DNA from: an uncultured Bacilli bacterium
Lineage (GTDB): Bacteria > Bacillota_I > Bacilli_A > RF39 > UBA660
DNA: 64,000 nt
Assembly: GCA_944358675.1 (NCBI GenBank)
Contig: CALVRN010000003.1
Location: 3,163-67,162 of the forward strand
Reading direction: 5' to 3'
The position numbers and the translations under genes were made by a program. Under the pieces are notes generated by a model. It was not told the DNA's origin. It did not search any database and was given only the letters and a program-made list of their open reading frames with translations. Positions 1,027 through 52,502 of the stretch are shown here, one piece after another; position 1 is the first letter of the stretch; each line of letters begins with the position of its first letter.

Positions 1027-1926
1027 TTATCCCTCCTTAATAACAGTCCCAGCTTTTCCGTTTAAAGCAGCATTAGCGTTTTCTAATGAGGCGATAATAG
1101 CTGTACCATGATGCTTTTCGGCAAAATCTAGGCAAGCTTCAATTTTTGGAAGCATACTTCCTTTAGCAAAATGTCCTTCTTCTATATATTTATGTGCTTC
1201 AGAAGTGGTAAGTTTATCTAGAGTTATTTCATTTTCTTTACCATAGTTTAAACAGACTTTATCGACAGCGGTTAAGATTAGTAAAATATCAGCCCCAATG
1301 TTTCCGGCTAATAGGGCTGCAGATTTATCTTTATCGATAACAGCATCAATACCTTCTAGACCTTTTTCTTTATCATTTATGACAGGTACGCCACCGCCTC
1401 CTAGGGCGATGACAAGGTATCCATCATCATTTAATCTTTTAATAACTTCTTCTTCGATTATTTTTATAGGTTTTGGTGATGGAACGACTCTTCTATATCC
1501 TCTACCGGCATCTTCAATGAAAGTATAGCCTTTTTCTTTGGTCATTTTTTCAGCTTCTTCTTTGGTATAAAATGTTCCGATTGGTTTTGTTGGATGTTTA
1601 AATGCTTCATCGTTTTTATCTACAAGTGTTTGGGTAATAACGGTTAGGCATGTTTTTTTAATATGTTTTTTATTTAATTCATCTTGAAGTGACTGCTGAA
1701 GCTGATAGCCAATATATCCTTGGCTCATGCCACCGCATTCTGGGAATGGCATTTCCATGTGATTGAATATTTCTCCTACTTGCGGACCATTACCATGAGT
1801 TAAAATAATATTATTATTTTTGGTTAATTCAGCAAGCATTGGAGCGATTAATTCTATTTTGGTTTGTTGCTCTTTAGCATTATTTCCTAAAGCATTACCT
1901 CCTAAGGCAATAACGATTTTACTCAT
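1027..1926 (-). CDS. arcC: carbamate kinase
   Basis: [13 protein letters not shown]... 299 aa with carbamate/amino-acid kinase fold motifs. Overlaps arcB by 8 nt. Confidence 0.9.
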
Positions 1927-2917
1927 TTTTATCCTTCATTGTGGCATACATTACAGCTTTGATTGTATGCATACGGTTTTCGGCTTCATCAAAAACTTTA
2001 GAGTGACTTGATTCAAAAACTTCATTGGTTACTTCCATTTCTGGTAAGCCAAATTTTTCATAAATTTCTTTACCAATTGTGGTTTTTAAATCGTGAAATG
2101 ATGGAAGGCAGTGTAAGAAGATTGCATTAGGATTTGCATTATTTAAAACTTCTTTAGTGACTTGGTATGGTTTTAGAAGTTTTATTCTTTCATTCCATAC
2201 TTCATCAGGTTCACCCATAGATACCCAAACATCAGTATAAATGACATCGGCATTTTTAGTAGCTTCTTTGACATTTTCTTCAAAGGTTAAATGACTACCA
2301 CTTGTTTTGGCTATTTTTTGACAAGTATCTATCAGTTCTTTGTTTGGCCATAAATCTTTTGGAGCGCAGCAAGTAAAGTTCATTCCCATTTTGGCTGATG
2401 CAACCATTAATGAATTTGCTACATTATTTCTAGCATCACCCATGAAGACAAAGTTAATGCCTTCTAGGTGTCCAAAATTTTCTTCAATAGTAAGCATGTC
2501 GGCTAGCATTTGGGTTGGATGAAATTCATTGGTTAAGCCATTCCAAACTGGTACACCAGCATAGGCTCCTAAGGTTTCAACTAGTGATTGATCGAAACCA
2601 CGATATTCGATTCCATCATACATACGACCTAGAACTCTTGCGGTATCTTCGATGCTTTCTTTTTTACCCATTTGAGAGCTTCCTGGATCTAGGTAGGTTA
2701 CACCCATTCCTAGGTCATGTCCGGCAACTTCAAAAGCACATCTTGTTCTTGTTGAGGTTTTTTCAAATAGTAAAACGATGTTTTTACCTTTTAAATATCG
2801 ATGAGGAATACCTTTTTTCTTTTTGTTTTTGAAGTCTTTAGATAGATCTAGTAAGTATCTAATTTCTTCTTTTGAATAATCTAATAGTTTTAAAAAGTTT
2901 CTTCCTTGTAAATTCAT
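1919..2917 (-). CDS. arcB: ornithine carbamoyltransferase (catabolic)
   Basis: STRTRCAFE carbamoyl-phosphate-binding motif and HCLP motif. 332 aa. Confidence 0.9.
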
Positions 2918-2931
2918 ATTATGTTCCTTTC

Positions 2932-4173
2932 TTATTTTTCTCTAACTAATGGCATACTCATACATCTTGGTCCACCACGACCTCTTGAAAGTTCGGCACT
3001 ACTCATTTCAATTACTTTAAGGCCATATTCTCTTAACACTCTATTGGTTTCAGTATTTCTATTATAGACAACTACCACTCCTGGAGCGATTGCGAGAGTA
3101 TTACTACCATCGTTCCACTGCTCTCTTTGAGATGCTACTTCATCTCCTCCAGCACATGGAATTAAAGTTATGTCTAGTCCTAAATATTTTTCTAATATTT
3201 CTTCTAGAGAACCAGTCATTTCTTTAACGTTTAAGTCTTCATCACTATCTGGGTCATTTCCTTCTTTGATTTCATACACTTTTAATGTTTCCATAATTCC
3301 TGGATGATAAGTAAATTTATCATAATCAACTTGTGTAAATACGGTGTCTAGGTGCATGAACGCTCTTGACACTGGAATGTCAAAGGCTAAGATTGTATCA
3401 ATTTTACTTTCTTTATCTTTGAAAATATTTTTAGCTAATTGATCGATAGCTCCAGCTTCGGTTCTTTGAGAGATACCAATAGCTAAAACGTGATCGTTTA
3501 GATTTAAAACATCTCCACCTTCAATATGACATTCTTCATATCGATCATAATATTTTGGAACTTGTCCTTTAAATTTTGGATGGTAATTAAAAATATATTC
3601 AGCGTAAATTGTCTCTCTATTTCTAGTTACAGAATACATTTTATTTAAGGTTATACCTTCACCCACACTAGCAAAATTATCTCTTGTAAAGTATAGGTTT
3701 GGCATTGGGTCAGTAATAAAATCTGAATCTTCGCTTACTAAGTCAACTAGCGATTTATCTAGTCTTCTTTTTTCATAATCTAGTTCACTGATTCTGATTC
3801 CTTCCATTGTTTTTAAGACTAGGTCTTTATTGTTTTCGATACTATTTAAATATTCTAATACTAAGTATTTATATTTAGGTGTATCAACCCCGGCTTCAAT
3901 TATAAACTGTTTAATAAATCTTTCTTTGATGTCTGGTCTTTGGTCTAAGACTTCAGTCATCAAATCTTCGAGATAAAACACTTTTACTCCATTTTCTTTT
4001 AGTATGTTTGCGAATTCATCGTGTTCTTTTTGAGCAACTTCAAGATATGGAATATCATCAAAAAGTAATCTTTCTAAGGTGTCTGGTGTTAAGTTTAATA
4101 ATTCTTTTCCTGGTCTATGGAGTAATACTTCTTTTAAAGGTTTTATTTCGCTTGTGACATCAATTGCACTCAT
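2932..4173 (-). CDS. arcA: arginine deiminase
   Basis: 413 aa. [13 protein letters not shown]-terminus, PNLYFTRD, and C-terminal [12 protein letters not shown] catalytic-Cys region typical of ADI. Confidence 0.92.
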
Positions 4174-17077: not shown

Positions 17078-17398
17078 CTATTTTAAATCATCGATATTCT
17101 TCTTTAATTGTTTGGCATCTTCACCAAAAATTATTTTTAGTTGATTATCAATTTCAACTATACCCTGAGCACCCATTTTTTGAATTGCTTCTTTATTCAC
17201 AAGTTCAATATTATGAAGGTTTACAACGAATCTTGAATTATTTACTTCATAATTAATAATGTTTGCTGTTCCTCCTAAGTATTCAATTAATTTATTGGCC
17301 TCTAATTTAAAATCTTTACTTTTAGCTTTTAGAATTGCGAAAGCTATTATTAATAAGACTATAATTATAATTACATATTGCCATATCATTTTCATCAC
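17078..17398 (-). CDS. membrane-anchored PTS EIIB(Glc)-like domain protein lacking the phosphorylatable Cys
   Basis: 106 aa, N-terminal TM. YLGGTANIINYEVNNSRFVVNL aligns to the EIIB signature LGGKENI...CxTRLR with Cys replaced by Asn. Confidence 0.5.
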   Translation of the reverse strand: MMKMIWQYVIIIIVLLIIAFAILKAKSKDFKLEANKLIEYLGGTANIINYEVNNSRFVVNLHNIELVNKEAIQKMGAQGIVEIDNQLKIIFGEDAKQLKKNIDDLK

Positions 17399-17421: not shown

Positions 17422-18216
17422 CTATATTTTTAATATATCATTTTGATCTAAAGTTCCATTACTAATAGCTTCATTTATATATGATTGCATTCTTTCAGTT
17501 CTGTTTATTTCCATATTGTTGATTCTTTCATCTAATCCGTTAGCATATCCAGATAAATCTATTAAATATTGGATTAGTGAATTTTTTGTTTCTGTACTAT
17601 TAATTTGTTGAAGGAAAATTGCTATTGTTTTGGGATCACTACTACTTATATAATCATCTAAATGACTATCTAATAATTTCATAGCTATTACTCTTGCTTT
17701 ATAATTGTTTATTTCTTGTTCTTCACTGTTTTCAAATGGGTAATTATTTGTAAGTAGTCCTACCATCTCTTCTAAATCAGTAAGATATACACCATAGTTA
17801 TATGTCTTAACACTTATAAAATAACTTGTTTGATTTTCTTTTACTTCACCATCGAATTTCCAAAAATAGTTTTCTTTTATCTTGTTTTCCAAATTACTAA
17901 AATAAGTTTTGTTATTTTTGACATAATTGTCTAAATTATATTTGTCAATTAATTTTTCACTAGGTGCTTGGAGAAGATAGGCATCTTCTCCAGTCATCAT
18001 TGTTTTATCTTGAACTTCTTGATTCATTAAACTTTCTAATTCATCTTTACTGATACCATTAGCAAAGCCATTAGAAATATTTTCTATGATCTCTTTTTTA
18101 GTATAGCTCTTTTCTGGCTCTTTATTATTTTTGGTTAATATGATTATTGTGACAGCTAATGCGATGAGTATCAAGAACACTATTACACTAATTATTATTT
18201 TAGTTTTCTTTTTCAT
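17422..18216 (-). CDS. hypothetical protein with N-terminal signal-anchor and extracytoplasmic domain
   Basis: 264 aa. KKKTKIIISVIVFLILIALAVTIIIL TM at the N-terminus. No recognisable catalytic motif. Confidence 0.5.
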   Translation of the reverse strand: MKKKTKIIISVIVFLILIALAVTIIILTKNNKEPEKSYTKKEIIENISNGFANGISKDELESLMNQEVQDKTMMTGEDAYLLQAPSEKLIDKYNLDNYVKNNKTYFSNLENKIKENYFWKFDGEVKENQTSYFISVKTYNYGVYLTDLEEMVGLLTNNYPFENSEEQEINNYKARVIAMKLLDSHLDDYISSSDPKTIAIFLQQINSTETKNSLIQYLIDLSGYANGLDERINNMEINRTERMQSYINEAISNGTLDQNDILKI

Positions 18217-18231
18217 AATTCACCTCTTTTG

Positions 18232-20853
18232 CTATAGATTTGGTGTATATGGAACTATAAGTGTACCATATGATCTATCACTAACATTTCCGGCATTATC
18301 AGTTGTTTGAGTACCCAATGATATATTAACTGGGGATCTTCCTCTATACTTCCATGTACAACTATGAGTCCATTCGCAAAAGTCTCCTACGCCATTATTT
18401 GATTTGAACAGATATAGCGTTTTACCTGTGTTAACACCTGATAAATTGTCTTGTGTATATGATCCTTCGTCATAACCCCATGGGGTACACCAAGGATTTA
18501 ATTGTACAGAACAGTTTTGTGTTTTTCCATTACAACTGTTATTTGATAATGATCCACATATTCCACCTGTAACATTTATATAAGGAGTATTTGGCTTTGT
18601 GGCATCTCTTTTAAATCGTTTTGAACATTTATTAGTATTACCTGCGGCATCTTTAACATATCCATAATAAGTTATTCCTTTTGTATCTGTTGTTTGTGTT
18701 GCACTTGTTTTTCCGTTATAACTTGCACTACTGCTACTTGATATTCCATAAGATGCGACTCCACTTAAATTGTCATTTTTAGCAGAGAATGATACTGTTA
18801 CATTACTTCGATACCAACCATTATTTCCTGATGTTCCATTTGAAACTATGCTACATGTCGGAGCGGTTTTATCCATCTTAATCCATTTTGAGCATTTGTT
18901 AGTATTACCTGCAGCATCTTTAACATATCCATAATAGGTTACTCCTGATGTCTCTGCTGTTTGTGATGCACTTGTTTTTCCATTATAACTTGCACTACTA
19001 CTTGTTGTTAATCCATATGATGCGACTCCACTTAAATTATCGCTTCTCGATAATGATAAAGTTACATTACTTCGATACCAACTATTGTTTCCTGATGTTC
19101 CACTTGCACTTATAGAACAGCTTGGTGCTGTTTTATCCATCTTAAACCAAGTTGAACATTTGCCTGTATTTCCAGCAGCATCCCTGACATATCCATAATA
19201 GGTTACTCCTGATGTGTTAGATGAATAAGTTGCACTTGTACTATTATTATATGTTGCACTTGTACTAGTACTTAAGCCGTATGAAGCAACTCCACTTGTT
19301 GAGTCATTTCTCGAGCTAAGTTTTACTGTTACATTACTTTTATACCAACTGTTGTTTCCAACTGTTCCACTCTTGGTTACTGTACATGTTGGAGCGGTTG
19401 AATCTTTCTTGACTGAAATTGAACATTTATTTGTATGTCCAGCGGCATCTTTCACATATCCATAATAAGTTATTCCTTTTGTATCTGCTGTTTGTGTTGC
19501 ACTTGAATTATTTCCATAACTGGCATTTGTGCTTGTTGTTATTCCGTATGATGCGACTCCACTTGTTGCATCAGTTTTTGAGTTAAATGATATTGTGATG
19601 TTTCCTTTATACCAACCATTGTTTCCTGGTGTTCCACTTGATTTTAATGTGCATGATGGTGCTACCGTATCTCTTTTTACATTTTTTGTACATGTTCCAA
19701 CATTTCCTGCTCTATCTTTAACAAAACCATAATATGTTTGACTCTTGGTGTCATAAGTTAATGTCATTTGAGTTGTTCCGTTATATACCGCACTATTTGC
19801 CGTATTCATTCCATATGAGGCAACTCCACTTTCTTTGTCTGATGTTGTCATTTTTAGGGTAACATTTCCGGTATACCATTGATTGCTTCCTTTTTGTCCA
19901 CTATCAGTAATTGTACATGTTGGTTTTGTATTATCTACTACTTTTAACGATGTTCCATTTGCTGAAATATTGCCAGCTTTATCTTTTACCCATATATAAT
20001 ATGTTCCTAAATCAAGTCCTCTTACAAATGTTTTGGTTTCTCCTCCATTACTTGAAACTGATATCCAATTACTATCATCTTCACTTGGTCTTGTGTTTGA
20101 TGTTGATATATATAAGCCATTTATTCCACTAATTTCATCTCTTGCAGTTATTCTTACTCTATTGTTTCCATTACTCCATGAGCCCATTTCGACTTTTGTT
20201 ATTACTGGTATTTCACTATCTATGTTTATAATATCTATTTTTGATGAAATTATATTATTACCTTTTAATCTAGCTTCTAACTGGCCAATTTTTGTAAATA
20301 CTAATTCTACATTTCCGCCATCATCTGCACTGCTATCTCTTATCCATGAGCCATTATCTATACGGTGTGATGCTTGGAAGTTTCCATCCATTTCAGGATA
20401 TATAATTGTGACTTTTCTTTGTTTTACCCAGCTACTTCCACTTGGATCAACTATAAAATCTATCATTGGTAAAGCGGCTATTTCTTCACATTCTGCGCCT
20501 TCTTTTAATTCGTGCTCGGTATTACCGCTACTATATATTGTAACCATTACGGATTTATCAGATATATCTTCTCCTGTTGTGACATCTTTTACTGGAGCAG
20601 CTAATTTTCCATCATCGATTAAGCTTTGAATGGTTATACAATATCTTCCACTTTTTCCCGGTGGATAATCTTCTGGATGTTCTCTTATATACTGATCGGC
20701 AGCATCGTATATTATTTGATTTTCTGCTTCTACTGCTTCATCTCCGCTACTTGATATTCTATTTATTATTCCTGGGATAACTAGAATTAATAATAAAGAT
20801 ATTATTACTATTACTCCCAATATCTCAGTTAATGTAAATCCTTTTTTGTTCAT
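18232..20853 (-). CDS. large type IV pilin-like (prepilin N-terminal cleavage/methylation domain) protein with five tandem 88-aa Cys-pair repeat domains
   Basis: N-terminus KKGFTLTEILGVIVIISLLLILVIPG is the class III/prepilin signal (G|FTLxE). Residues about 307-747 are 5 copies of D.T.P.C....SG..G.N.WY..N.T......D..SGVASYG...S..A.Y.......T......TYYGYVKDAAGNT.KCS. Confidence 0.7.
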   Translation of the reverse strand: MNKKGFTLTEILGVIVIISLLLILVIPGIINRISSSGDEAVEAENQIIYDAADQYIREHPEDYPPGKSGRYCITIQSLIDDGKLAAPVKDVTTGEDISDKSVMVTIYSSGNTEHELKEGAECEEIAALPMIDFIVDPSGSSWVKQRKVTIIYPEMDGNFQASHRIDNGSWIRDSSADDGGNVELVFTKIGQLEARLKGNNIISSKIDIINIDSEIPVITKVEMGSWSNGNNRVRITARDEISGINGLYISTSNTRPSEDDSNWISVSSNGGETKTFVRGLDLGTYYIWVKDKAGNISANGTSLKVVDNTKPTCTITDSGQKGSNQWYTGNVTLKMTTSDKESGVASYGMNTANSAVYNGTTQMTLTYDTKSQTYYGFVKDRAGNVGTCTKNVKRDTVAPSCTLKSSGTPGNNGWYKGNITISFNSKTDATSGVASYGITTSTNASYGNNSSATQTADTKGITYYGYVKDAAGHTNKCSISVKKDSTAPTCTVTKSGTVGNNSWYKSNVTVKLSSRNDSTSGVASYGLSTSTSATYNNSTSATYSSNTSGVTYYGYVRDAAGNTGKCSTWFKMDKTAPSCSISASGTSGNNSWYRSNVTLSLSRSDNLSGVASYGLTTSSSASYNGKTSASQTAETSGVTYYGYVKDAAGNTNKCSKWIKMDKTAPTCSIVSNGTSGNNGWYRSNVTVSFSAKNDNLSGVASYGISSSSSASYNGKTSATQTTDTKGITYYGYVKDAAGNTNKCSKRFKRDATKPNTPYINVTGGICGSLSNNSCNGKTQNCSVQLNPWCTPWGYDEGSYTQDNLSGVNTGKTLYLFKSNNGVGDFCEWTHSCTWKYRGRSPVNISLGTQTTDNAGNVSDRSYGTLIVPYTPNL
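18610..19935 (-). repeat. five tandem copies of an about 264-bp coding repeat (88-aa domains) inside the pilin-like gene
   Basis: Near-identical DNA blocks recur at about 264-bp spacing (for example tccataataagttattccttttgtatctg at 18661 and at 19461). The protein repeats align residue by residue. Confidence 0.7.
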
Positions 20854-20977
20854 TATGCTTCCTCCCCTATTATTTTCATTATAACATAATTTTTTTGTAA
20901 AAAATAGAGTAATTTTTCACTTAAAAATAATTGTATCTTTAAAAACTTTAGTGTATTATATTTATTGGTGATAACTC

Positions 20978-38164: not shown

Positions 38165-39190
38165 TTATTCAGTTGCGGTTGTTAGTTGAAGGTCAAAGGT
38201 GATTTTTCCACCTGATGCGTTGTTTTCACAGTCGACATCTTGTCCTTCAATCCACATATAAACTCTAACTTTTGTTACACCTTTTTCAAGGTTTATTAAT
38301 GCTTGATTTTCATCAAATCCAGTTTCAGTTTTAATTGCTGGAGTTACTGTTTGGAATAATGTAGCATTATTACTACCAGTACTTGTTCCATCATGTTTAG
38401 CTTGTCCTAAAGTAATACCTTCTTCTGTTCCAAAGGCAGCTTTAATACCATCATAGGTTACAGCAGCATTTCCTGTACCTTGATTTACGGTTACACCATA
38501 AACATCACGGGCGTTAGCAACACCATAAGCTGTATGATCATCATAGTTTGGTTCCCAAATTGTTACTGGTGAAGCAGCCCCATCATTAATTGATTGAAGG
38601 GATGATACTGATTCACCACTATCTTTGTTACCTAGTACAACAAAGGCAACTCTGGTAGCATTTTTAATACCTTTATCATTATCATCAGCAAAAGTAATAC
38701 CTGAATTTGAAGTTAAATAAATTTGAGCAGCTTCTTCTGTTCTTAAGAAGATATCATAAGCAACGAAAGCTCCTGATGCTGTAGTGTTGGTTTCAGTAGA
38801 TTTAGAAGCAGATAAGACAAAATCTCCTCCATCGTCTGCTGTTACGGTTCCTAGGAACATTTCCATTTTTCCAGTACTATCTACAGTTCCTACAGATGAA
38901 ACTGGTTCAATAGTTGCTGGAATTTGGTTAACGGCTGCGGTATATGTTCCGCTAGCACTTGTTAAATCTGATACATCCAAAATTGATTTCCAGTTTTGAG
39001 CATCAGCTGATATTTGTAAACCACTTTTAGCTGTAACGTTTACATCAATTGGGTTTACAGATACTGTTTTATTGGCTGTAAACCAAGCATAAGTTGCAGT
39101 TCCAAAAATTATACCTGTTCCAATCATTAAAAATAATAGTAATAAAACTCTTCTTTGTTTTCTTTTTTGTGTTTTTTTCTTTTTTTCCAT
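38165..39190 (-). CDS. SipW-cognate secreted protein, candidate major fibre subunit (paralog of 50321..51307)
   Basis: 341 aa. Signal ...LFLMIGTGIIFGTATYAWFTANKTVSV (TasA-class motif). Ala/Thr/Gly/Ser-rich beta-type composition. C-terminal RVYMWIEGQDVDCENNASGGKITFDLQL shared with the paralog. Own promoter and terminator. Confidence 0.7.
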   Translation of the reverse strand: MEKKKKTQKRKQRRVLLLLFLMIGTGIIFGTATYAWFTANKTVSVNPIDVNVTAKSGLQISADAQNWKSILDVSDLTSASGTYTAAVNQIPATIEPVSSVGTVDSTGKMEMFLGTVTADDGGDFVLSASKSTETNTTASGAFVAYDIFLRTEEAAQIYLTSNSGITFADDNDKGIKNATRVAFVVLGNKDSGESVSSLQSINDGAASPVTIWEPNYDDHTAYGVANARDVYGVTVNQGTGNAAVTYDGIKAAFGTEEGITLGQAKHDGTSTGSNNATLFQTVTPAIKTETGFDENQALINLEKGVTKVRVYMWIEGQDVDCENNASGGKITFDLQLTTATE

Positions 39191-39274: not shown

Positions 39275-39835
39275 TTACATTTGTTTTGAATCTATATAAA
39301 TAGTCGCACTTTCTAAAAGGTCCTGATATTCCGATGATTTATACTGCTCAGGGAAATTTACAACTAATTTATAATTATCAGTTTGCTTTACATCGTGTGT
39401 AAAGTTTTTTTTAGGTGTATGGAATTTATAAAAATACATTCCATCTTCATCTTGATATATTTCTTTACTTGTAATTATATTATCCGTGCTATCGGATAAA
39501 TAGATTTCATATTCAACTGGTAAATTAGTGGTTGTTACTAAAGTTAATTCATATTCTAAATCTACTTCACTAGTTTTATTATCTTTAAAGTTAGATACAT
39601 TTATGCTATAAACATAGTCTTGTCCATCTGGCGCTATTTCAAACATTTTTATATCTTCACTTTGGGTTTTTGTGTCTAAAACATAAAATGCGATATCAAG
39701 GTTTGCTTTACCTTTTCCGTCTGTTTGAAATGATGAAAAGGTTCTACCTAGTATTAATAATATAAATATTAAAACAAGGACAATGGTTATACGATTAAAT
39801 TTTATAAATTTTTTCTTATCAATCATTTTTTTCAT
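39275..39835 (-). CDS. secreted protein with SipW-cognate signal (module C cargo)
   Basis: 186 aa. ...LIFILLILGRTFSSFQTDGKGKANLDIA (compare TasA ...WAAFNDIKS). Overlaps the upstream sipW by 17 nt. Confidence 0.6.
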   Translation of the reverse strand: MKKMIDKKKFIKFNRITIVLVLIFILLILGRTFSSFQTDGKGKANLDIAFYVLDTKTQSEDIKMFEIAPDGQDYVYSINVSNFKDNKTSEVDLEYELTLVTTTNLPVEYEIYLSDSTDNIITSKEIYQDEDGMYFYKFHTPKKNFTHDVKQTDNYKLVVNFPEQYKSSEYQDLLESATIYIDSKQM

Positions 39836-40400
39836 CCTTTTTTAATAAAATACCAGAGTAATATATTCCAAAATCGTCATCTTTAGATAATTTCTTTTTA
39901 CCTGTATATGAGAATGCAAGTGAGAAAAGAAATAGTGTAATACATATTAAAGCAATTATTTTAGGTGTAGTTATTACTTTATACCAAACACCAAAGTTAG
40001 GTAGTATTTTTATTACTTTACCAATAATTTGAGTTTCAGCTATACTACCATCTGCATCGTTATTGGCATCTCCTTTGGTTATATATGTATTACCATTTTT
40101 AGATATTAATCTATGAGTAACTAAACTTTCTCCATCATCATATGTAATAATATCATTTTCTGATACATCTTTGGTTACTTTAACTAATATTAAATCGTTA
40201 GTTGTAATTTCTGGAGCCATACTGTTACTGGCTATTTGAAAGACTGTATATGAAAATATACTGACATATTTATGATTTAGTATTTTGAGGTTAATAAAAG
40301 CGTATAAGACAATTAATAAAATAATGCCTAAAATTACTAGTAAAATATTACTAATAACTTTTAAAGTTTTATATAAAACTTCTTTTTTCACTTTCACCAC
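39819..40400 (-). CDS. sipW: signal peptidase I, SipW type (catalytically intact)
   Basis: 193 aa. SNSMAP catalytic Ser, VTHRLIS His, TKGDANNDADG. N- and C-terminal TM. Confidence 0.8.
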   Translation of the reverse strand: MVKVKKEVLYKTLKVISNILLVILGIILLIVLYAFINLKILNHKYVSIFSYTVFQIASNSMAPEITTNDLILVKVTKDVSENDIITYDDGESLVTHRLISKNGNTYITKGDANNDADGSIAETQIIGKVIKILPNFGVWYKVITTPKIIALICITLFLFSLAFSYTGKKKLSKDDDFGIYYSGILLKKDEKND

Positions 40401-40404
40401 CTCT

Positions 40405-40971
40405 TTACTCTATGTACTGATTAAAATTAATACTAATTGGTATTTCTATTTGACTATTTTCATCTAGGCCTAACTGAGAATCACTTTCGTTATATTCTTC
40501 TGAATCAGTCCAGCTGAATGTTACTTTAATCATATCTGTTTTACCATTTTGAATATCATTCAAAGTAATGATTTTACTATATGTATCATTTTCTTTGGTT
40601 AAAACTGTACCATTAATTCCTTCAATACTATCTATTTTTATTTGTGGATATGTATCTGTAAGATCAATGTTTAAGAAATACTCGATGGCGACATCTGTAT
40701 CTTTAGGGTCTATTTCTAAAATAAATTCACCTTTGGAGCCAGGAGCAAATTTACCATCACTGACTTTTCCATTATTGGTATAGGTGATGTTATCGACATA
40801 GAAAGTACTATCTACACCAAGATCATAATCATTGACATAAATGTGCCATTTAGCAATTTTTAAATCATTTTCACTTTGGATATTGCTTTCAAAAACAGCT
40901 AAAGAGGATGCGAGTTCAAAGATTGTTAAACCTAAAAACAAACATCCTATAATGATAAATAATTTTTTCAT
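40405..40971 (-). CDS. secreted protein with SipW-cognate signal (module D cargo); paralog of 31326..31910
   Basis: 188 aa. Signal ...LFLGLTIFELASSLAVFESNIQS. Shared blocks are listed under the 31326..31910 entry. Confidence 0.65.
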   Translation of the reverse strand: MKKLFIIIGCLFLGLTIFELASSLAVFESNIQSENDLKIAKWHIYVNDYDLGVDSTFYVDNITYTNNGKVSDGKFAPGSKGEFILEIDPKDTDVAIEYFLNIDLTDTYPQIKIDSIEGINGTVLTKENDTYSKIITLNDIQNGKTDMIKVTFSWTDSEEYNESDSQLGLDENSQIEIPISINFNQYIE

Positions 40972-41492
40972 TCTTCATCTAATGGGGTTTTTAGTTCTAT
41001 AATGAAACGATATATTTCATAAAGTAATAATAGTAATGTTGGTAAAACAATTATAAGCAAGAATCCAAAACGAGATTCTAAGAATCCTAATACTTTTCCA
41101 ACATTGTTATAAACTGTAGTTGTTTCAGTTTTACCGATTAAACTAGCACTTGATATATCGTGATTATCATTAATAGTAAATGTTCTTTCGGTATCAGTTA
41201 TAACTTCAACGTTGGTTACAGTACCAAGATTAATGCTTGGAATACCATTAGTTACTTCATAAAATAGTATTTCATCACCATTTTTTATTTCACTGATGTC
41301 GTTTTGTTTTACAACTAATAAATCCCCTTCTTTATATGGCTGTAATTCATCTTCGACAATGATTAAACTATTTCCAAGCATTACGGTTATATTATAATCA
41401 TTGTAATTTAATAAAAATGCGGTAAGAATTATAACGAGTGCGAGATAAACTGTACATATAATTCCAAATAAAACTTTTAAAACTTTTTTCAT
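40968..41492 (-). CDS. SipW-like signal-peptidase homolog lacking the catalytic Ser/His (pseudo-peptidase)
   Basis: 174 aa. GNSLII in place of SGSMxP. INLGTV in place of THRV. TINDNHD in place of TKGDNN. N- and C-terminal TM retained. Overlaps its cargo gene by 4 nt. Confidence 0.55.
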   Translation of the reverse strand: MKKVLKVLFGIICTVYLALVIILTAFLLNYNDYNITVMLGNSLIIVEDELQPYKEGDLLVVKQNDISEIKNGDEILFYEVTNGIPSINLGTVTNVEVITDTERTFTINDNHDISSASLIGKTETTTVYNNVGKVLGFLESRFGFLLIIVLPTLLLLLYEIYRFIIELKTPLDEE

Positions 41493-43159: not shown

Positions 43160-46100
43160 CTATTTTATTATAACATATTCTTCACAATCTCCTATATAAA
43201 CATCTCCATCATATAGACTAAAGACAAATTTATATGTTCCACTAACTAAATTTTCTTTTAAGTATAGTGATTTATTTAAGTTATCTAAAGGATTTTCTTC
43301 AAACATGTATGTGTAATCACCTTTGTCAATTAAATTATTGCTGATGTAATCAGTTAAGTTTACTTTGGTATATGTCATGTCATAGACTTCGTTATAGTTT
43401 CTCCTATATAGACTTATTCTAACATTTGGATCTGCTAAATTTGATGAGTATTTCATATTAAATATTAGGGTGTTGTTATTATAATTAGTAAATCCTGTAT
43501 CTTTATCAATTATTTTAAATCGATCGTTTAAGGTTATATCTAATCCAAATCTACTATTAATGATTGTGAATGGTATTTCTGCAACATCCGAAGATTGATA
43601 TCCATAATAGATTCCATCCGGTGAACCAAATGATTCTATTTTCATTGTATAATTACCACTATTTAAATTGGTATTTTTAGTATTTATTTTTAATCTACTA
43701 TATACGTTTGCTACTCTATCGGCTAATGGTATTCTAACACTACCATCCATTCTCGGATAATATGTTACTCCATCTAGTTCATAACTTAAACCTAATAAAC
43801 TACTATTATTTAATTGGTTACCATTACTATCATATATGGTTATTTTAGTACCTAATTTTTTATCATAATAAGTGGTGTCTGTAACGGTAATGCTATTTAC
43901 TATCGGTGATATGAAGTTAGTTGTCAAATCTAAATTAACTGTATCACCAATGTATATTTGATTTTTACTTAAAGTTCCCGATATATCGATAGTAGCGCTT
44001 TGCTTATCATAAAGACTATAAGTCAAATTGGCGTGCTGGATACCTAAAACACTTATTAATGTTTGGTCGTCTTGATTTCGCATTTCCATAAGCAAGGTAT
44101 TGTTTAACATATCACCAGATATATTGGTATCACCAAAATCAACTATAAATATAAATTCTTCATGTAGTATACCTAAGTCTTTATCGTAATACATATTATT
44201 TATGTTTTCTTCATTATAGTTATTATTTGCATTAGTAGATCCCATAGCAATAAAATCACTTAATAAATATGAGCTTTCTTTATATATTTGATATTCATTT
44301 GTGGCTTTAATGACATCTTCATCATTTATAACTTTATAGTAATATACTGGAGAGCTTCCACCTAAATCAATCATGGTTATTTTAGTGTTTTTAGGTAAAA
44401 CATAGTTTGAAACTAAAGCGTGATGATATCCTTCTTTATAATAAGGTTCATCTGTTTCCATATATAGTGAATAATAAGCACTTAATTTTGATTTATTAGT
44501 GATGTTAGTTGAAGTTGAAGCAAATAAATCATATTTTTCTCCTGGTGTCATGGCTCCTTCATATTGATTATCAGTGTATAAGGCACTACTTAAATTTACA
44601 TTTATATTAATTCTGGTTACTTCATTATTTAAGTCATCAATTGGTGTAATAGCTACTAGTGAGATAACTACTGTTCCTAATTTTTTTTCTTGAGTAAGAT
44701 TTTTAGAGTGATATAAGTAAAATATAAAACTTGGAACTGTACTTGAGTTTTCTGATTTGTAATTTGTCGTACCAGATATTGGGGTTTGTTCATCGGTCAT
44801 AAAATTAGTTGATCCAACTGTTACAAATCCACTTTTAGATGATTCCATGGATAAACCCATTTTATTGTCAGCGGTACCTTCAGTATTGATTCTATCTATT
44901 TCATCTGGAGATACTAATTCAAAATCTGATTCAAGGTTCTGATAGTTAAAGCCTAATATTTCAAAAGTCGTATTTGGTTTTGAAGAAGTAACTAGTGGAA
45001 GTTCATAAGTACCTAATGTGGAATATTTTGAGGCTGTTAATGATAATTCATAAGTTGTTACTGTTTCTCCAACAACCCACATATAATAGCTTGCATCGCT
45101 TGGTGTCGGTTCGATGTATTTTACTTCGATTGTTCCTTCATTTTCTTCACTTTCATAGTTACTATAAAAGCCATCTTTTGTTATATCGTGATCTGTTTTA
45201 TGCATGCCTAAAGCGTAACTTCCTGATGTGAAAGCATAAAATTCTCCGGAAGCAACAGTGTCGCCAAAGTCATATTTATTATTATAAAAGGCTGTTAAAA
45301 CTTCACCATTTCTATCTAGTTGATACATTCCAAAGAAGGTCATACCATTTACTTCACCATAGTTGGTGACAGCTTCATTAGTTGCAATGTTTAAGTTTTT
45401 ACCTTCTAACATATATACTCTATTGTTGACATTTTTTGTAACTGTTCCATCATCGTTAATGGTAACCGTGGCTTTTTCTTCTTTATCATCTATTTTTAAG
45501 CTAGAAAATTTTTCTAATAAGTTAGTTCCATTTTCTAAGAATAAGGTACTATTATTGGCTAATTTTAATTCTTTGACACGGCTAATACTGAATTCTACAT
45601 CTGAATATTCGTTTGTTCTATCGGTAGTTCCTGATAGTTTGATGGCTGAATTTTTTATTGTTACAATATCCGCTCTTTGAATTGATATGTTTTCTTTATA
45701 ATTATCAAAGGTTCCATAGTTAGATATATCGATGTAGCTATACCCTTCTGTACTTGAGGCATTACCACTTCCAAAAATAGATCCTGATATATTGAAGTTA
45801 CTATAATTATTGCCATCAATATCAATATTTATTCCTTTAGTAACACTTATAAATGAATAGTCATAGTCTTCATCACCGGCGGCATTGGCTTCTCCACCAC
45901 CGAAGACTGTGCCATCAATTGATATATCACTTTTGATTAGGTTTTCGGTATTGTTACCAATAACTAAATCAACTATCCCATATAATATTGCGGTGTTTGC
46001 TCCTCCATAGACATTTCCATGAATAGTTGCTCCAGCTATTTGGACTTTACTTTCTGAATTGTTTTTTTCTTCTGTACCTGTATTGGCAGCATTTCCACCA

Positions 46101-49100
46101 CCAAAGACATGTTTGCCAACGGTTGTATTATTGTCAATATTTAAAGTGGTGTTGCCATTTACTACAGCACTTGCTCCATTACCGCCAGCATAAATACTGC
46201 TAGAAACATTTGAGTTTGAAACATAGACATTTGTATTACCGTTTACACTTCCTAGGTTACCACCACCAAATAAGTCTCCTTTAATTGATGAGTTTTTAAA
46301 GGTAACGTTGGTATTAGTGTTAATACCAGCTTGGTTTCCACCTCCATAAAAGGCTCCATCCATATCTATGTTATTAACATTTACAGTTGTTTTATCTGTA
46401 ATTGTCATGTTGCCGCCACCATATATATTAGTATAATGTCCGCCGTTTAAGTTAATGTTTGCATCATTAGTAATGCCGCCTAAATTATTTCCACCATATA
46501 AATTTGTAACATTTAAATTTTGTGGATTATTTGATTCAATATTACTTTTAGAAACTTCACCGCTTTGGTTACTACCACCATATATATTAGTTGCTGTTCC
46601 ACTTGTTAGGTTAATATTAGAGGTATCTATTCCAGCATTATTACCTCCTCCAAAAATATTTGTACATGTAGAACCTTCTAAAATTACATTTGATGTATTA
46701 GTATTTGTTTCGTTACCACCACCATAAACATTTTCAATTTGACCATTATATAAATTTACATTTGTTTGATTGGTAACTCCACCTTGATTATTTCCACCAT
46801 ATACATTATTTATTTTAGCGCCATTAATATCTATGTTGGATGTTTTGACATCTCCTTTTTTGTTTGAACCACCATAAACTGAATTAATATTTCCATTTTT
46901 TACATCTATGTTTGTTGATGAAATAATACTGGCTTCTTCTCCACCGCCATAGATATCCCCTATATTTCCATTATTGATTAAAATATTAGAGGTATCAGTA
47001 TCTGTTAGTTTTCCACCACCATATAATGTGGTTACATCTCCACTATTTACAGTGATATCAGATTCTGTTGTTTGGCCACCAACATTATTTCCACCGTATA
47101 AACTTGTGGTTGCCCCTCCGGTGACAATTATTGTACTTGTACTTACATCTCCACTTTGATTACTACCACCAAAGAGATTAGTGACTGTACTACCATTTTG
47201 ATAAACATGGGTATTAGTGACTAAGGTTTGATTTCCTCCACCATAAACATTAGTTACTGTTCCATTATTTAAATAAACAGCAGTCATACCATTTGGCTGT
47301 CCATTAGCATCATTTCCACCATAGACATTAGTGATTTTACCATCATTAATATTTACTGTAGTGTTTCCACCAACATATGGTGTTTGACTAGTACTTCCTT
47401 TAGCACCGCCGAAAACACTATTTATATTTCCACCATTTATATTAATATTTATATTATAATTACTTTGATTAGTTGTTTTACTAGTAGCATTAACGACACC
47501 ATAAGCACTACCACCATAAATAGAACCTGTGACAGTTAAATTGTCACTTGTTGTTTGGATATTAATGTCTTGACTAACATAAGTATCACTACCTAATCCA
47601 CCGCCGTAGACATCTTTTGTTTGTCCACCTGAAAGAGTTATATTAGCACTTCCATAGACTGTTCCTTCTTGGTTACTACCACCATAAATGGAATCTTTGA
47701 CTGTGCCATTTGTCATGGATATGTTGATGCTTGAAGTTACTCTACCGTTTCTACCTGATCCACTATGGTTACCAGATCCAAAGGCCGAACCAATTGTTCC
47801 ACCCAATATTTGAATGTTTGTGTTGCTGGTACCACTGCCACTATAACCAACAGTACCATAGTTTCCACTTCCATAAACATTTTGTTTTACTACTGCCTTA
47901 TCATTAATAATGATATTTGAATTATTTACTGAACCAATAGTAGCATACCTAGTATTACCGTTTCCAGCTCCAAAGACAGAGCCAGATTCAGCTCCCCATA
48001 GGGTTCGGTTGTTATTTATATTGTCATCGGTACCAATGGTGGCTGTTCCACCTATATATACATAGGTATCTCCTGTGATAGCTCCATCAGCATTACCACC
48101 ATCTGTACCGTTACTACCGCCAAAGACACTGTAATTGACTGTTCCACCAGTTACTTGGATTATTCTATTACCATATGTTGTGGTTGTTCCAGCTCCTCCA
48201 AAGATAGCATCAACGCTTCCGCCAGTCATGTAAATAAAGGTATCATTTAATTCTCCTTTAGAATCGGTTTCTTCTGTTAATGGGCCACCATTTAAATTAT
48301 AAATATATCCGCCTTCAACTTTGATACTTCTTGGTGCATAATGTGTTCCACCATAACGGCCTCCAACGTATACACCTGTAGATATATCTAATTTACTGGT
48401 TCCAAAGCTACCGCTTTTAATATTGGTGTTTAAAGCGGAAATTAATGTATCATTTGATGAATGAATTCGCCCAGACCAACTTCCAGATGCACAATAATAA
48501 ACAGATAATTTATCATTGTTTTGGGTTACTCTATCATAATCATTTCCATATACAGTTATTTGTTCAACATATAAGATTGTACTTCTTGAGCTTGTAGATG
48601 CACCATATGTGGAAGATGTAGAGTTATATTTTCCAGATTCTACTTCTAATTTATATTTTTTGGGATTACTAGCTGATCCTATTGTAGTATTTCCCCATAT
48701 ACTACCACTTTCAGCATTGGCACCTATAATTGATACGAAGTTAACATTATTACCACTTTGTTTTATATTTCTTCCTAATTTAACATTGAAATAATTTCCA
48801 TAGAAAACTCTTCTAGTATTACTATTATTAGATGGGTCAGTGTTAGCATTTCCTGTTCCACCATTGATTGTTAATTCTTCTATTCTTGTATCGTTATAAC
48901 ATGTAACACCAGTATTATTAACATTCCATGTTGCATTATAATCATGGCCATTATAAATGCCGGTTAAGGTAAATGGTTTAGTGTTTGAGCTAGACCAAGT
49001 ACTAGATGTATTTCCAGTCATAACGACTAAATTGGTATCTCTTGTAGTTAAGTAATAATAAGTTTCATCTTTATTGTATAATTCTTCTGTACCATTATTA

Positions 49101-50299
49101 TAAAATTGAATTAATTCATAATATGTACAGCCACTTCTAGTATTACAAGTTCCTGATTGAACAGTTCCAACGTTGTTATAATATCCATCTATTGATTCTC
49201 GATAATTTATATTGACAGCTCTATAGTAACCTGACATATTAGTGTTTTCGTTAAAGTTTTCATCATCTTCACTACCAACATATATAGGTTCTAAATTAGC
49301 TTCAACAAACCCTCCACGACTGTTTCTAGTATAATAAGTGGCGTTTGGGTCGTATTCATCATTTTCATCTTGCAGACGAAAAATTGTACAATCATTTGTA
49401 TAATCTCCGACACTTGGGCGCCATCCTAGACTTGGGGCATCACAGGTGTATTCATTATACTGATTATAATAGTTTCCATCTTCGTCATAGCAATCAGTAC
49501 ATGTACCATAATTAGTTTCTGTTTCAGGTCCTGTAAATATACCACCACTAGAAATAACGGTTGTTGTTGTAGTTATTGTTTCAGATTTATAATATCCATC
49601 TACACTTGGGTATTCATATATGTCTTTAGAGGTATTGACTTTGTTCATTCCCTCATCATTTAAATCATTAAAAACATTATTGAATGATCCATTAACGTAG
49701 CTTACTGCTCCTTTTATCCAAGAAGCATGCATGGTTATTTCAATATCATTTGGAATTCCTCCTGTGTATGTTACTGGAACAGTTAATGTTCTTGTATAGT
49801 AAGTATCATCATATGATATTTTAGCGTTTTGGTAATCGGTTATCCATCCGTTAAATACGGTATCATCAGGATGGTTATTAAATGGGTTATCAATTAATTC
49901 AATGTTAATATAACCGTTTTCCACAGGATAATATTTATAATAAACTAATTTACTTTGATTTTCAGTTAGAGAAACATAACCTGTTTTTTTGGTATTATAA
50001 TCTTCCCCATCATAAGTTATTATTACTTTAACTAAATTATTATCATTATAAAGGTTTTTGTTATTTAATGTAGGTAGTTTTCCATCTGTACTGTTGGTAT
50101 AATTTTGACCAGTGTAATAATAGTAATCACTGTCTAAATCATTAATATATACGGTGTCCTCAATTATACCATGAGAAACTGCCATGTCTGTCCCACTTTT
50201 TATGGCTCCATAGGTAAAGGCAATTGTAGTAATGGATAAAAGAATAGCTAAAAATGTAAGTAGTTTTAATTGCTTATTGTTTTTTATTCTTTTAAACAT
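43160..50299 (-). CDS. giant (2379 aa) secreted beta-solenoid repeat protein (candidate fibre-associated adhesin or sheath)
   Basis: N-terminal signal ...LLTFLAILLSITTIAFTYGAIKSG. The central about 750 aa are made of about 30 tandem 20-22 aa units of the form x-G-x-I-x-N-[VIL]-[YF]-G-G-[GSN]-N-x-x-G-x-[VI]-x-x-S-N-I (NVYGGNN, SVYGGSN, NIFGGGN ...). This is the signature of a parallel beta-helix. Confidence 0.75.
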   Translation of the reverse strand: MFKRIKNNKQLKLLTFLAILLSITTIAFTYGAIKSGTDMAVSHGIIEDTVYINDLDSDYYYYTGQNYTNSTDGKLPTLNNKNLYNDNNLVKVIITYDGEDYNTKKTGYVSLTENQSKLVYYKYYPVENGYINIELIDNPFNNHPDDTVFNGWITDYQNAKISYDDTYYTRTLTVPVTYTGGIPNDIEITMHASWIKGAVSYVNGSFNNVFNDLNDEGMNKVNTSKDIYEYPSVDGYYKSETITTTTTVISSGGIFTGPETETNYGTCTDCYDEDGNYYNQYNEYTCDAPSLGWRPSVGDYTNDCTIFRLQDENDEYDPNATYYTRNSRGGFVEANLEPIYVGSEDDENFNENTNMSGYYRAVNINYRESIDGYYNNVGTVQSGTCNTRSGCTYYELIQFYNNGTEELYNKDETYYYLTTRDTNLVVMTGNTSSTWSSSNTKPFTLTGIYNGHDYNATWNVNNTGVTCYNDTRIEELTINGGTGNANTDPSNNSNTRRVFYGNYFNVKLGRNIKQSGNNVNFVSIIGANAESGSIWGNTTIGSASNPKKYKLEVESGKYNSTSSTYGASTSSRSTILYVEQITVYGNDYDRVTQNNDKLSVYYCASGSWSGRIHSSNDTLISALNTNIKSGSFGTSKLDISTGVYVGGRYGGTHYAPRSIKVEGGYIYNLNGGPLTEETDSKGELNDTFIYMTGGSVDAIFGGAGTTTTYGNRIIQVTGGTVNYSVFGGSNGTDGGNADGAITGDTYVYIGGTATIGTDDNINNNRTLWGAESGSVFGAGNGNTRYATIGSVNNSNIIINDKAVVKQNVYGSGNYGTVGYSGSGTSNTNIQILGGTIGSAFGSGNHSGSGRNGRVTSSINISMTNGTVKDSIYGGSNQEGTVYGSANITLSGGQTKDVYGGGLGSDTYVSQDINIQTTSDNLTVTGSIYGGSAYGVVNATSKTTNQSNYNINININGGNINSVFGGAKGSTSQTPYVGGNTTVNINDGKITNVYGGNDANGQPNGMTAVYLNNGTVTNVYGGGNQTLVTNTHVYQNGSTVTNLFGGSNQSGDVSTSTIIVTGGATTSLYGGNNVGGQTTESDITVNSGDVTTLYGGGKLTDTDTSNILINNGNIGDIYGGGEEASIISSTNIDVKNGNINSVYGGSNKKGDVKTSNIDINGAKINNVYGGNNQGGVTNQTNVNLYNGQIENVYGGGNETNTNTSNVILEGSTCTNIFGGGNNAGIDTSNINLTSGTATNIYGGSNQSGEVSKSNIESNNPQNLNVTNLYGGNNLGGITNDANINLNGGHYTNIYGGGNMTITDKTTVNVNNIDMDGAFYGGGNQAGINTNTNVTFKNSSIKGDLFGGGNLGSVNGNTNVYVSNSNVSSSIYAGGNGASAVVNGNTTLNIDNNTTVGKHVFGGGNAANTGTEEKNNSESKVQIAGATIHGNVYGGANTAILYGIVDLVIGNNTENLIKSDISIDGTVFGGGEANAAGDEDYDYSFISVTKGINIDIDGNNYSNFNISGSIFGSGNASSTEGYSYIDISNYGTFDNYKENISIQRADIVTIKNSAIKLSGTTDRTNEYSDVEFSISRVKELKLANNSTLFLENGTNLLEKFSSLKIDDKEEKATVTINDDGTVTKNVNNRVYMLEGKNLNIATNEAVTNYGEVNGMTFFGMYQLDRNGEVLTAFYNNKYDFGDTVASGEFYAFTSGSYALGMHKTDHDITKDGFYSNYESEENEGTIEVKYIEPTPSDASYYMWVVGETVTTYELSLTASKYSTLGTYELPLVTSSKPNTTFEILGFNYQNLESDFELVSPDEIDRINTEGTADNKMGLSMESSKSGFVTVGSTNFMTDEQTPISGTTNYKSENSSTVPSFIFYLYHSKNLTQEKKLGTVVISLVAITPIDDLNNEVTRININVNLSSALYTDNQYEGAMTPGEKYDLFASTSTNITNKSKLSAYYSLYMETDEPYYKEGYHHALVSNYVLPKNTKITMIDLGGSSPVYYYKVINDEDVIKATNEYQIYKESSYLLSDFIAMGSTNANNNYNEENINNMYYDKDLGILHEEFIFIVDFGDTNISGDMLNNTLLMEMRNQDDQTLISVLGIQHANLTYSLYDKQSATIDISGTLSKNQIYIGDTVNLDLTTNFISPIVNSITVTDTTYYDKKLGTKITIYDSNGNQLNNSSLLGLSYELDGVTYYPRMDGSVRIPLADRVANVYSRLKINTKNTNLNSGNYTMKIESFGSPDGIYYGYQSSDVAEIPFTIINSRFGLDITLNDRFKIIDKDTGFTNYNNNTLIFNMKYSSNLADPNVRISLYRRNYNEVYDMTYTKVNLTDYISNNLIDKGDYTYMFEENPLDNLNKSLYLKENLVSGTYKFVFSLYDGDVYIGDCEEYVIIK
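45900..48300 (-). repeat. tandem array of 60-66 bp coding repeats (Gly-rich beta-helix rungs) inside the giant gene
   Basis: Recurrent ccaccaccata / ccgccaccata (reverse-complement of YGGG/YGGN codons) at regular spacing on the plus strand. Boundaries are approximate. Confidence 0.6.
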
Positions 50300-52476: not shown

Positions 52477-52502
52477 GAAAAAAAAGAACTATTTCTAGTT
52501 CT
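52477..52502 (-). terminator. strong terminator after the type IV pilin gene
   Basis: agaacta-tttc-tagttct hairpin (52485-52502) overlapping the stop, then T8 on the minus strand (A8 at 52477-52484). Confidence 0.65.

Follow-up and report, generated by a model that had tools for sequence, protein, structure and literature searches.

Results

The window analysed here is a stretch of 64,000 nucleotides (64 kb) of contig CALVRN010000003.1 (assembly GCA_944358675.1) from an uncultured Bacilli bacterium of the RF39 lineage, with a G+C content of about 24–34%. Its reverse strand carries a gene for an 873-residue protein in which a pilin-type N-terminus is followed by immunoglobulin (Ig)-like domains and a hypervariable C-terminal cap, and this pilin gene is followed by a gene for a 264-residue protein, here called p264. 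The divergent rodA lies on one side of the pilin gene, and p264, a gene for a 106-residue protein resembling the EIIB component of the phosphotransferase system (PTS), pyk, and a GH31 gene lie on the other. Coordinates are collected in Table 1.

Pilin-type N-terminus

The protein begins with MNKKG|FTLTEILGVIVIISLLLILVIPG, which has the form of a class III signal peptide. Around Glu10 (MNKKG|FTLTE(10)ILGVIVIISLLLILVIPG) we find a short, positively charged leader, Gly, Phe at +1, Glu at +5, and about 20 hydrophobic residues. The NCBIfam prepilin model TIGR02532 scores 16.8 bits, above its cut-off of 16.3, and Pfam N_methyl stays just below its gathering score (19.9 vs 21.2). A profile made from residues 1–130 of 22 family members and compared with solved structures matched Geopilin (1.3e-10), Streptococcus sanguinis PilE1 (4.6e-9), PilA (1.6e-8), and GspG (2.5e-7), with F6 falling on mature residue 1. 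In an AlphaFold2 model of the whole protein, built with 114 sequences, a 51-residue alpha1 helix (residues 8–58) precedes a small antiparallel sheet (69–117; strands 69–74, 101–106, and 112–117). The module includes a hydrophobic alpha1N (6–28), Glu10 at the position of mature E5, and the cysteine (Cys) pair Cys72/Cys122. A preliminary description of this DNA, made from its letters, had read a prepilin cleavage/methylation signal at this point, and both sequence and model support the view that the N-terminus represents a genuine type IV pilin module.

The same type of N-terminus is present in 114 of the 120 top homologues, with Gly at position -1 in 104 and Ala in 10. The Ala form (K-A-F-T-L), seen in about 10 of the 120, occurs in P0006, P0017–P0019, P0023, P0029, P0030, P0042, P0059, and P0095. 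Modular pilins have been defined (Raynaud et al. 2021, PMC8179133) by an IPR012902-type motif accompanied by at least one extra module that is not pilus-specific, and the protein fits that definition in that residues 1–125 are followed by eight beta-sandwich domains. The class also implies that the extra module takes a direct part in a pilus function such as adhesion, which for this protein is predicted from its architecture.

Repeat array, fold, and cysteines

Residues 307–749 (window 18607–19935) consist of five tandem units of 88–89 residues (U1–U5), each of which contains two Cys and an invariant SGVASYG and scores 142–154 bits against the hidden Markov model (HMM) of the unit. Tandem Repeats Finder reports a period of 267, 3.8 copies, and a score of 945. 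Identity between units is 56–83% in DNA and 47–77% in protein; U4/U5 is the sole DNA pair as high as 83%, pairs among U2–U5 otherwise stand at 68–74%, U1 stands at 56–61%, and the longest exact run common to units is 34 bp. The 75–85% DNA identity given in the preliminary description is therefore too high. Its count of 5.5 copies stands as far as the five full units are concerned, and what it took for a half copy is a degenerate unit without Cys, at about residues 217–305 (17 bits). Similarly, the two Cys and SGVASYG are invariant as it had proposed, and its third block, TYYGYVKDAAGNT.KCS, is conserved but not invariant. The C-terminal 124 residues (750–873), with six Cys, represent a further derived copy of the repeat.

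The AlphaFold2 model has a mean predicted local distance difference test (pLDDT) score of 84.6, and beyond the pilin module all of its domains are beta domains. The best Foldseek matches of this model in the PDB are tandem-Ig proteins, GhpA (2.6e-16) and carcinoembryonic antigen (3.9e-12), so the Ig-like modules suspected earlier are borne out as predicted beta-sandwiches. We also counted Cys in 460 units from 120 homologues: both were present in 310, neither in 125, and one only in 25. Among proteins with a single Cys-bearing unit, 29 of 30 had both. The two Cys thus behave as an intradomain pair, in keeping with the earlier suggestion, and this supports a disulfide that would join the first to the last strand inside each domain. 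Pairing between domains, in which Cys82 of one unit would bond to Cys7 of the next over a distance of 13 residues, is disfavoured because first, last, and single units nearly always hold both Cys.

The two-Cys unit matched no Pfam family above threshold. When 40 diverse units were searched, four gave weak HYR matches (best E = 0.01) and single units gave Big_12, Big_3_2, or DUF7743 matches below threshold; a unit profile found no relative among PDB sequences. The nearest named model, the NCBIfam OmpL47-type NF047446, reached 35.6 bits over four stretches against a cut-off of 40. In the Cys-less domain D2, DUF7743 scored 23.4 bits (gathering score 27), and the OmpL47-type model scored 19.4 bits over D1–D2. 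By the curated cut-offs, the protein is not a member of the OmpL47-type, HYR (PF02494), Big_3, or DUF7743 families. It does share with them a beta-sandwich and the skeleton D-x-x-x-P ... W ... D-x-x-S-G-[VI] ... D-x-A-G-N, although all matches lie below cut-offs and only the two-Cys subfamily has the Cys pair close to its first and last strands. Across 1.84 billion proteins, the unit profile returned 5712 cluster representatives at E <= 1e-3 and 2091 at E <= 1e-10. Of the 137 best representatives that were new in this search, 44 showed the full prepilin motif, and the rest had ordinary signal peptides or membrane anchors.

Length variation and assembly

Independent metagenome assemblies yielded the identical 873-residue protein on no fewer than 23 contigs (41 index blocks), with a constant gene context, and one identical cluster member occurs on 40 contigs of up to 184 kb. 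Collapse to a single copy in independent assemblies, which the preliminary description had named as the sign of an artefact, is not what these contigs show, and the repeat array is real. With 56–83% identity and no more than 34 bp of exact sharing, the units can be resolved by assemblers.

A variant of 696 residues, P0332, belongs to the same 90% cluster and has the same cap but is without exactly U3 and U4, and its junction is in register at the unit boundary D-S-T-A-P-T|C (D-x-T-A-P-x-C). This form was assembled identically in two unrelated projects (L092 and L093), in the same rodA-pilin-p264 context and with substitutions of its own. Exact identity at the deletion junction in the window sequence amounts to only about 9–10 bp, which is too short for k-mer collapse in assembly. 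In a sister lineage, P0003 (nine units) and P0010 (seven units) differ by a duplicated two-unit block. Otherwise, units are mostly orthologous by position among relatives, and the best 120 of the 626 relatives have between zero and nine two-Cys units. Copy number therefore does vary, as had been predicted, and the length variants together with positional orthology point to occasional unequal recombination or slippage with no rapid switch. A tunable length had also been envisaged, but as a fast contingency mechanism it can be rejected, since the units have diverged too far and mostly correspond by position among relatives. The locus accordingly does not qualify as a phase-variable or contingency repeat locus, given exact sharing of at most 34 bp and an 873-residue form that is identical on at least 23 contigs. 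A further candidate variant, P0004 (725 residues, on a 3.5-kb contig), is 98% identical over residues 1–549 and then continues into unrelated non-beta sequence; it was set aside as a probable chimera broken inside the repeat array.

Hypervariable tip and partner gene

The strongest signal at this locus was absent from the preliminary description: what varies most from strain to strain is not length but the tip domain together with the downstream gene. At least four unrelated tip alleles occur among near-identical strains whose flanks are 97–100% identical in DNA, and the tips are 29–43% identical where they can be aligned. P0002 (877 residues, L086) occupies the same locus, and its identity to the 873-residue protein is 99–100% over residues 1–572, 90% in U4, 36% in U5, and 29% in the cap. 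When the DNA of the two was compared in 100-bp windows, identity was 97–100% to about 19000, 38–47% over U5 and the cap, and 53–84% over p264, and it returned to 98–100% from about 17490. In a third allele (L089–L091) the end of U5 is retained and the cap that follows is about 41% identical, and in the fourth (P0337, 920 residues, L094) five units lead into a longer, unalignable tip.

Terminal domains of the cap type occur in 22 of the 120 homologues at 25–37% identity, and C774, C781, C826, and C832 are invariant in an alignment of 19 cap domains. The cap is modelled as an eight-strand sandwich (pLDDT 82.6) and has the DxxSG...DNAGN motifs of the Ig-like repeat. Its fold found nothing significant in the PDB, where the best match was a PKD domain at E = 0.026 and the folds were of generic PKD/FN3-like type. 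A phage tail-fibre or receptor-binding domain was also considered and rejected, as the best viral fold (E = 0.012) was not significant and there are no phage genes nearby.

The partner gene follows the pilin gene in L004, L007, L013, L086–L089, L092, and L094, which include different genomic sites (in L087 the pair stands at another chromosomal site) and a copy flanked by insertion sequences (IS). In that copy (L094:152-6824) the pilin gene and p264 lie off the rodA-pyk site, between a DDE_Tnp_1 transposase gene and an IS30-like (HTH_38) gene. Homology to the window begins 51 bp 5' of the start codon, at 20904, and so takes in the -10 and Shine-Dalgarno stretch of Table 1. The sequence TGtTATAAT is a probable extended -10 promoter element, judged by its letters; a consensus scan for promoters and terminators did not rise above chance and was uninformative.

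Sequence identity of p264 is 95% where the cap is the same (L092) and 89%, 66%, and 63% where other caps are present. Its family comprises 32 clusters with a mean column identity of 63%, an N-terminal membrane helix, and extracytoplasmic topology, and it matched nothing in Pfam, NCBIfam, or the PDB. One homologue, 67% identical, is labelled 'Firmicutes bacterium CAG:822', and the GTDB genus CAG-822 is placed within order RF39 (PMC8035907), in line with a probable RF39-type source for the window. In the nearest relative, the syntenic L004 from an uncultured Bacilli metagenome-assembled genome (MAG), RodA, Pyk, and LeuRS are 88–90% identical to those of the window, and the pilin and p264 are only 52% and 55% identical (protein), which means that the pair evolves much faster than its neighbours. 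Most of 43 large pilin-like open reading frames (ORFs) in related loci are likewise followed, within about 10–20 nt, by a small gene for a membrane-anchored protein or lipoprotein. In a related species with the same rodA-pilin-p264-pyk synteny (L088:1593-2372), two short ORFs between rpmF and rodA show a 68% DNA match to p264, and by their sequence look like remnants of a second, decayed copy of it.

Table 1. Features of the pilin-p264 locus, in window coordinates
Feature	Position	Strand	Basis or remark
Coding sequence of the modular pilin-like protein, 873 residues	18232..20853	-	ORF list; stop TAG 18232-18234
Candidate extended -10 element TGtTATAAT (20886-20878) and Shine-Dalgarno GGGGAGG (20866-20860)	20860..20886	-	read from sequence, 5' of ATG at 20853
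Leader peptide MNKKG, residues 1-5; predicted prepilin-peptidase cut after Gly5	20839..20853	-	TIGR02532 above cut-off; F6 = mature residue 1 of solved pilins
Mature pilin module, residues 6-125	20479..20838	-	AlphaFold2 model; profile matches to PilE1, GspG, Geopilin; sub-threshold ComGC/GspG N-terminal similarity
D1, Cys-less beta-sandwich, residues 126-212	20218..20478	-	AlphaFold2 strands 132-208, pLDDT 84-90; 75-84% conserved among close relatives
D2, Cys-less degenerate repeat copy, residues 213-306	19936..20217	-	unit HMM 17 bits at 217-305; DxxSG and DKAGN motifs
Two-Cys unit U1, residues 307-394, Cys 313/388	19672..19935	-	
Two-Cys unit U2, residues 395-483, Cys 401/477	19405..19671	-	
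Two-Cys unit U3, residues 484-572, Cys 490/566	19138..19404	-	absent from 696-residue strain variant
Two-Cys unit U4, residues 573-660, Cys 579/654	18874..19137	-	absent from 696-residue variant; holds 5' edge of hypervariable cassette
Two-Cys unit U5, residues 661-749, Cys 667/743	18607..18873	-	sister of U4 in unit tree (83% DNA identity); replaced in allele P0002
Cap/tip domain, residues 750-873	18235..18606	-	derived beta-sandwich; Cys loops C774-x6-C781 and C826-x5-C832; hypervariable between strains
p264, 264 residues, N-terminal transmembrane anchor	17422..18216	-	starts 15 nt 3' of pilin gene; own Shine-Dalgarno; co-varies with tip
Hypervariable cassette, about 1.5 kb	17490..19000	.	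sliding-window identity vs L086 allele; BLASTN breakpoints

Family context and other genes of the window

A word-indexed search returned the 626 relatives, nearly all of which are without a name in the source records. The related loci, drawn from species-representative genomes, come almost entirely from gut MAGs of uncultured Bacilli, 'Tenericutes', Mycoplasmatota, or Erysipelotrichaceae, and their large pilin-like genes are scattered among housekeeping genes, sometimes several to a contig. Several large paralogues (1144, 1087, 1080, and >1273 residues), some with Flg_new domains, stand on single contigs in L085 (4635-23264) and L084, and the presence of SpoIIGA and sigma-E-like genes on two contigs of this kind suggests that those MAGs are able to sporulate. 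Large pilin-like genes of related MAGs lie beside PilB in L065, L048, and L050 and directly 3' of PilC-PilD in L060.

Next to p264, the 106-residue protein (17078-17398, minus strand) combines an N-terminal membrane helix with a glucose-type PTS EIIB domain (best match 4e-11), with no EIIC or EIIA adjoining. It is 99% identical to its L004 orthologue over 78 aligned residues, next to the 52–55% of its neighbours p264 and pilin.

The sole other prepilin-type gene in the window (52501-53058, 185 residues, TIGR02532 31.4 bits) heads a long same-strand string of genes at 31919-53058 on the minus strand. This string contains SipW-type signal peptidases at 39819-40400 and 32496-33062 (TIGR02228, 76.9 and 82.7 bits), degenerate SipW-like paralogues at 40968-41492 and 37605-38096, 'YAWFTAN' proteins with SipW-dependent signal peptides at 38165-39190 (above the TIGR04088 cut-off) and 50321-51307, and an ORF encoding 2379 residues (43160-50299) that has no Pfam match. 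It may be a TasA/SipW-like fibre locus. Adjoining ORFs at 33055-35692 (minus strand), with DUF2357 (4.1e-13) and a weak nSTAND3-like NTPase match, may be defence-related genes embedded in it. Genes at 1027-4173 on the minus strand encode the whole arginine deiminase pathway: arginine deiminase, ornithine carbamoyltransferase, and an amino acid kinase of the carbamate-kinase type. This agrees with a fermentative, genome-reduced gut bacterium.

Discussion

On balance, and with no great confidence, we lean towards the view that the 873-residue protein is a modular minor type IV pilin in which a rod of Ig-like domains carries an exchangeable cap. The class III signal peptide would direct insertion into the membrane, where a prepilin peptidase would cut after Gly5 and methylate Phe6, and the hydrophobic alpha1 helix, which has Glu as residue 5 of the mature protein, could then serve as the handle for incorporation by type IV filament machinery. 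By analogy with PilB and PilC of S. sanguinis, the bulky C-terminal part would fit only at the filament tip. The rod would be composed of eight beta-sandwiches, namely D1, D2, the five two-Cys units (each held by a disulfide within the domain), and the cap, with a length of roughly 25–35 nm when reckoned at about 4 nm per Ig-like domain, and it would hold out the Cys-looped cap to a ligand. It is possible that homologous recombination swaps the cassette of about 1.5 kb (the last unit or units, the cap, and p264), resulting in altered binding or antigenic specificity, and that rare unequal crossing-over at the D-x-T-A-P-x-C junction alters rod length. Judged by its architecture, the protein is most likely a strain-specific adhesin.

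The general kind of protein is known, because modular pilins are established and PilC of S. sanguinis already joins a pilin to an Ig-like module and an effector. More than 1200 modular pilins in 264 architectures have been catalogued, including multi-repeat cases (PMC8179133). PilC (pilin, Ig-like, and lectin modules), the studied protein nearest to this one, and PilB (pilin and vWA modules) are modular minor pilins that have been modelled at the pilus tip and proposed as adhesins (PMC8179133; Shahin et al. 2023, PMC9934059). The resemblance to them includes the monoderm host, a canonical class III signal peptide, a small pilin module with grafted modules, and, in PilC, the Ig-like fold. However, sequence similarity is confined to alpha1, and the present protein has eight beta-sandwich domains rather than one or two modules, no recognisable lectin or vWA effector, a gene outside any pil operon, and a tip that is allelic within the species and linked to a dedicated downstream membrane protein.

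Comparable features are found in type IVb pilins of diderms. TcpB of Vibrio cholerae is a type IVb minor pilin with a secreted partner, TcpF. CofB of enterotoxigenic Escherichia coli is a large type IVb minor pilin with a secreted partner, CofJ (PMC8179133). Like the protein described here, CofB and TcpB are large minor pilins with extra beta-rich domains, are thought to be located at the tip, and have a separately encoded partner. There is no detectable sequence relationship, though, their genes lie inside T4b operons, and CofJ and TcpF are secreted whereas p264 has an N-terminal membrane anchor; the trimerisation of CofB and TcpB, a further point of comparison, has no counterpart in the evidence on the 873-residue protein. 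Among the multi-repeat modular pilins in InterPro, one of Candidatus Falkowbacteria, with 860 residues and 12 IPR013211 motifs (PMC8179133), also places many tandem copies of a small domain behind a pilin N-terminus, but its repeats belong to another family, and such proteins are not known to replace their tips from strain to strain or to have a partner gene. The pilins reported for TANB77 (PMC11680825) belong to Tad-type pili of another clade and are unrelated.

Several observations weigh against a role in a pilus. A scan of all large ORFs in the 64-kb window found no type IV filament ATPase (PilB/ComGA), platform protein (PilC/ComGB), or prepilin peptidase (A24), and PROSITE-type signatures and tblastn with PilB, PilC, and PilD seeds from related loci also found nothing there. 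The co-occurrence with type IV pilus genes that the preliminary description had proposed as a check was thus not seen in the window, and pilus assembly and adhesion, like the term pilus-associated that it used, are matters we infer. Moreover, the pilin gene has housekeeping neighbours, with rodA on one side and pyk on the other, machinery genes lie within 10 kb at only 4–5 of about 80 related loci, fold and family searches recognised no ligand-binding family in the cap, disulfides have to be assumed in an anaerobic monoderm, and the two-Cys unit also stands behind other N-termini, so that the stalk is not pilus-specific.

These observations would also suit a protein whose pilin-like N-terminus only anchors or exports a wall-spanning surface stalk that is never polymerised, with p264 as a docking or stabilising membrane partner. 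Class III signal peptides occur on archaeal sugar-binding proteins, and a stalk of this sort would resemble these. The absence of pilus machinery from the window and from most related loci fits such a stalk, as do the scattering of family genes singly among housekeeping genes, the several large paralogues per genome (L085), the use of the two-Cys unit behind plain signal peptides or membrane anchors, and the small membrane-anchored or lipoprotein genes that follow most large pilin-like genes within 10–20 nt. On the other hand, the full pilin signature (Gly-1, Phe+1, Glu+5, the 51-residue alpha1, and the small beta head) is strictly conserved and would be needless for a mere anchor, Glu5 is typical of pilins that assemble, bacteria with bona fide type IV pili commonly have scattered pilin genes, and some relatives lie directly downstream of pilC-pilD (L060). 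We consider a stalk that only uses the pilin N-terminus as its anchor possible, although unlikely.

More speculatively, and in our opinion doubtfully, the cap and p264 may be a cognate pair, in which the pilin tip recognises p264 or a p264-dependent feature on sister cells as part of a strain-specific system of self or kin recognition or aggregation. Were this true, it would be a mobile two-gene module of genome-reduced, uncultured RF39-type gut Bacilli, on a pilin scaffold whose reach depends on how many Ig-like units it has.

It is improbable that the protein belongs to the competence (Com) pilus as a minor pilin engaged in DNA capture. Among the type IV filaments of Bacilli, Com pili are the most common (PMC12153270), and the best full-family N-terminal matches include the ComGC (30.9 bits) and ComGD/E/F models. 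Nevertheless, every Com model score is far under its cut-off, the gene is outside any comG operon, an Ig-like rod with a hypervariable tip is unlike known DNA-binding pilins, and tip replacement at the strain level suggests that the selective force is a variable ligand or immunity and not DNA.

Still less probable is a polymorphic toxin-immunity-like pair built on a pilin scaffold, as suggested by the conserved N-terminal region, the sharp breakpoint, the hypervariable C-terminus, and the small downstream gene inside the cassette. The cap is a derived Ig-like repeat with no enzyme-like fold or match, and p264 is well conserved and membrane-anchored and remains homologous at 63–95% across alleles; because it never switches to an unrelated sequence, the locus does not answer to the description of a toxin/immunity module. 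Finally, that the array or its variants are artefacts of short-read metagenome assembly is scarcely credible: metagenome assemblies are the only source, some contigs (L089–L091) end within the array, and P0004 looks chimeric, yet the 873-residue protein is identical across several samples, the units share too little exact sequence, and the 696-residue variant recurs in unrelated projects with its own substitutions.

For the modular minor pilin that we favour, three observations are new: the exact in-register loss of two units between close strains (696 vs 873 residues), at least four tip alleles in near-identical strains within a cassette that spans the downstream gene, and the travel of p264, a protein of no known family, with the pilin gene to other genomic sites. 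A limited full-text literature search found no description of a two-Cys stalk without a curated model combined with a Cys-looped cap that has several alleles in one species and a co-moving membrane partner in RF39-type gut Bacilli. The tip alleles within the species, the linked partner, and the occasional IS flanks indicate that the locus is under strong diversifying selection, and host immunoglobulin A, phage, or strain-specific ligands are likely selective agents.

RF39-like Bacilli are common, uncultured, genome-reduced gut bacteria, and for their attachment this pilin-like family, often with several paralogues per genome, offers a candidate surface organelle. The tip locus can serve to type strains and to study which ligands they bind. 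With its 5712 cluster representatives, the two-Cys unit forms a widespread subfamily of domains for which no curated model exists. Together, these features would widen the idea of the modular pilin from a pilin with one effector to a pilin with an adjustable Ig rod, an exchangeable cap, and a partner.

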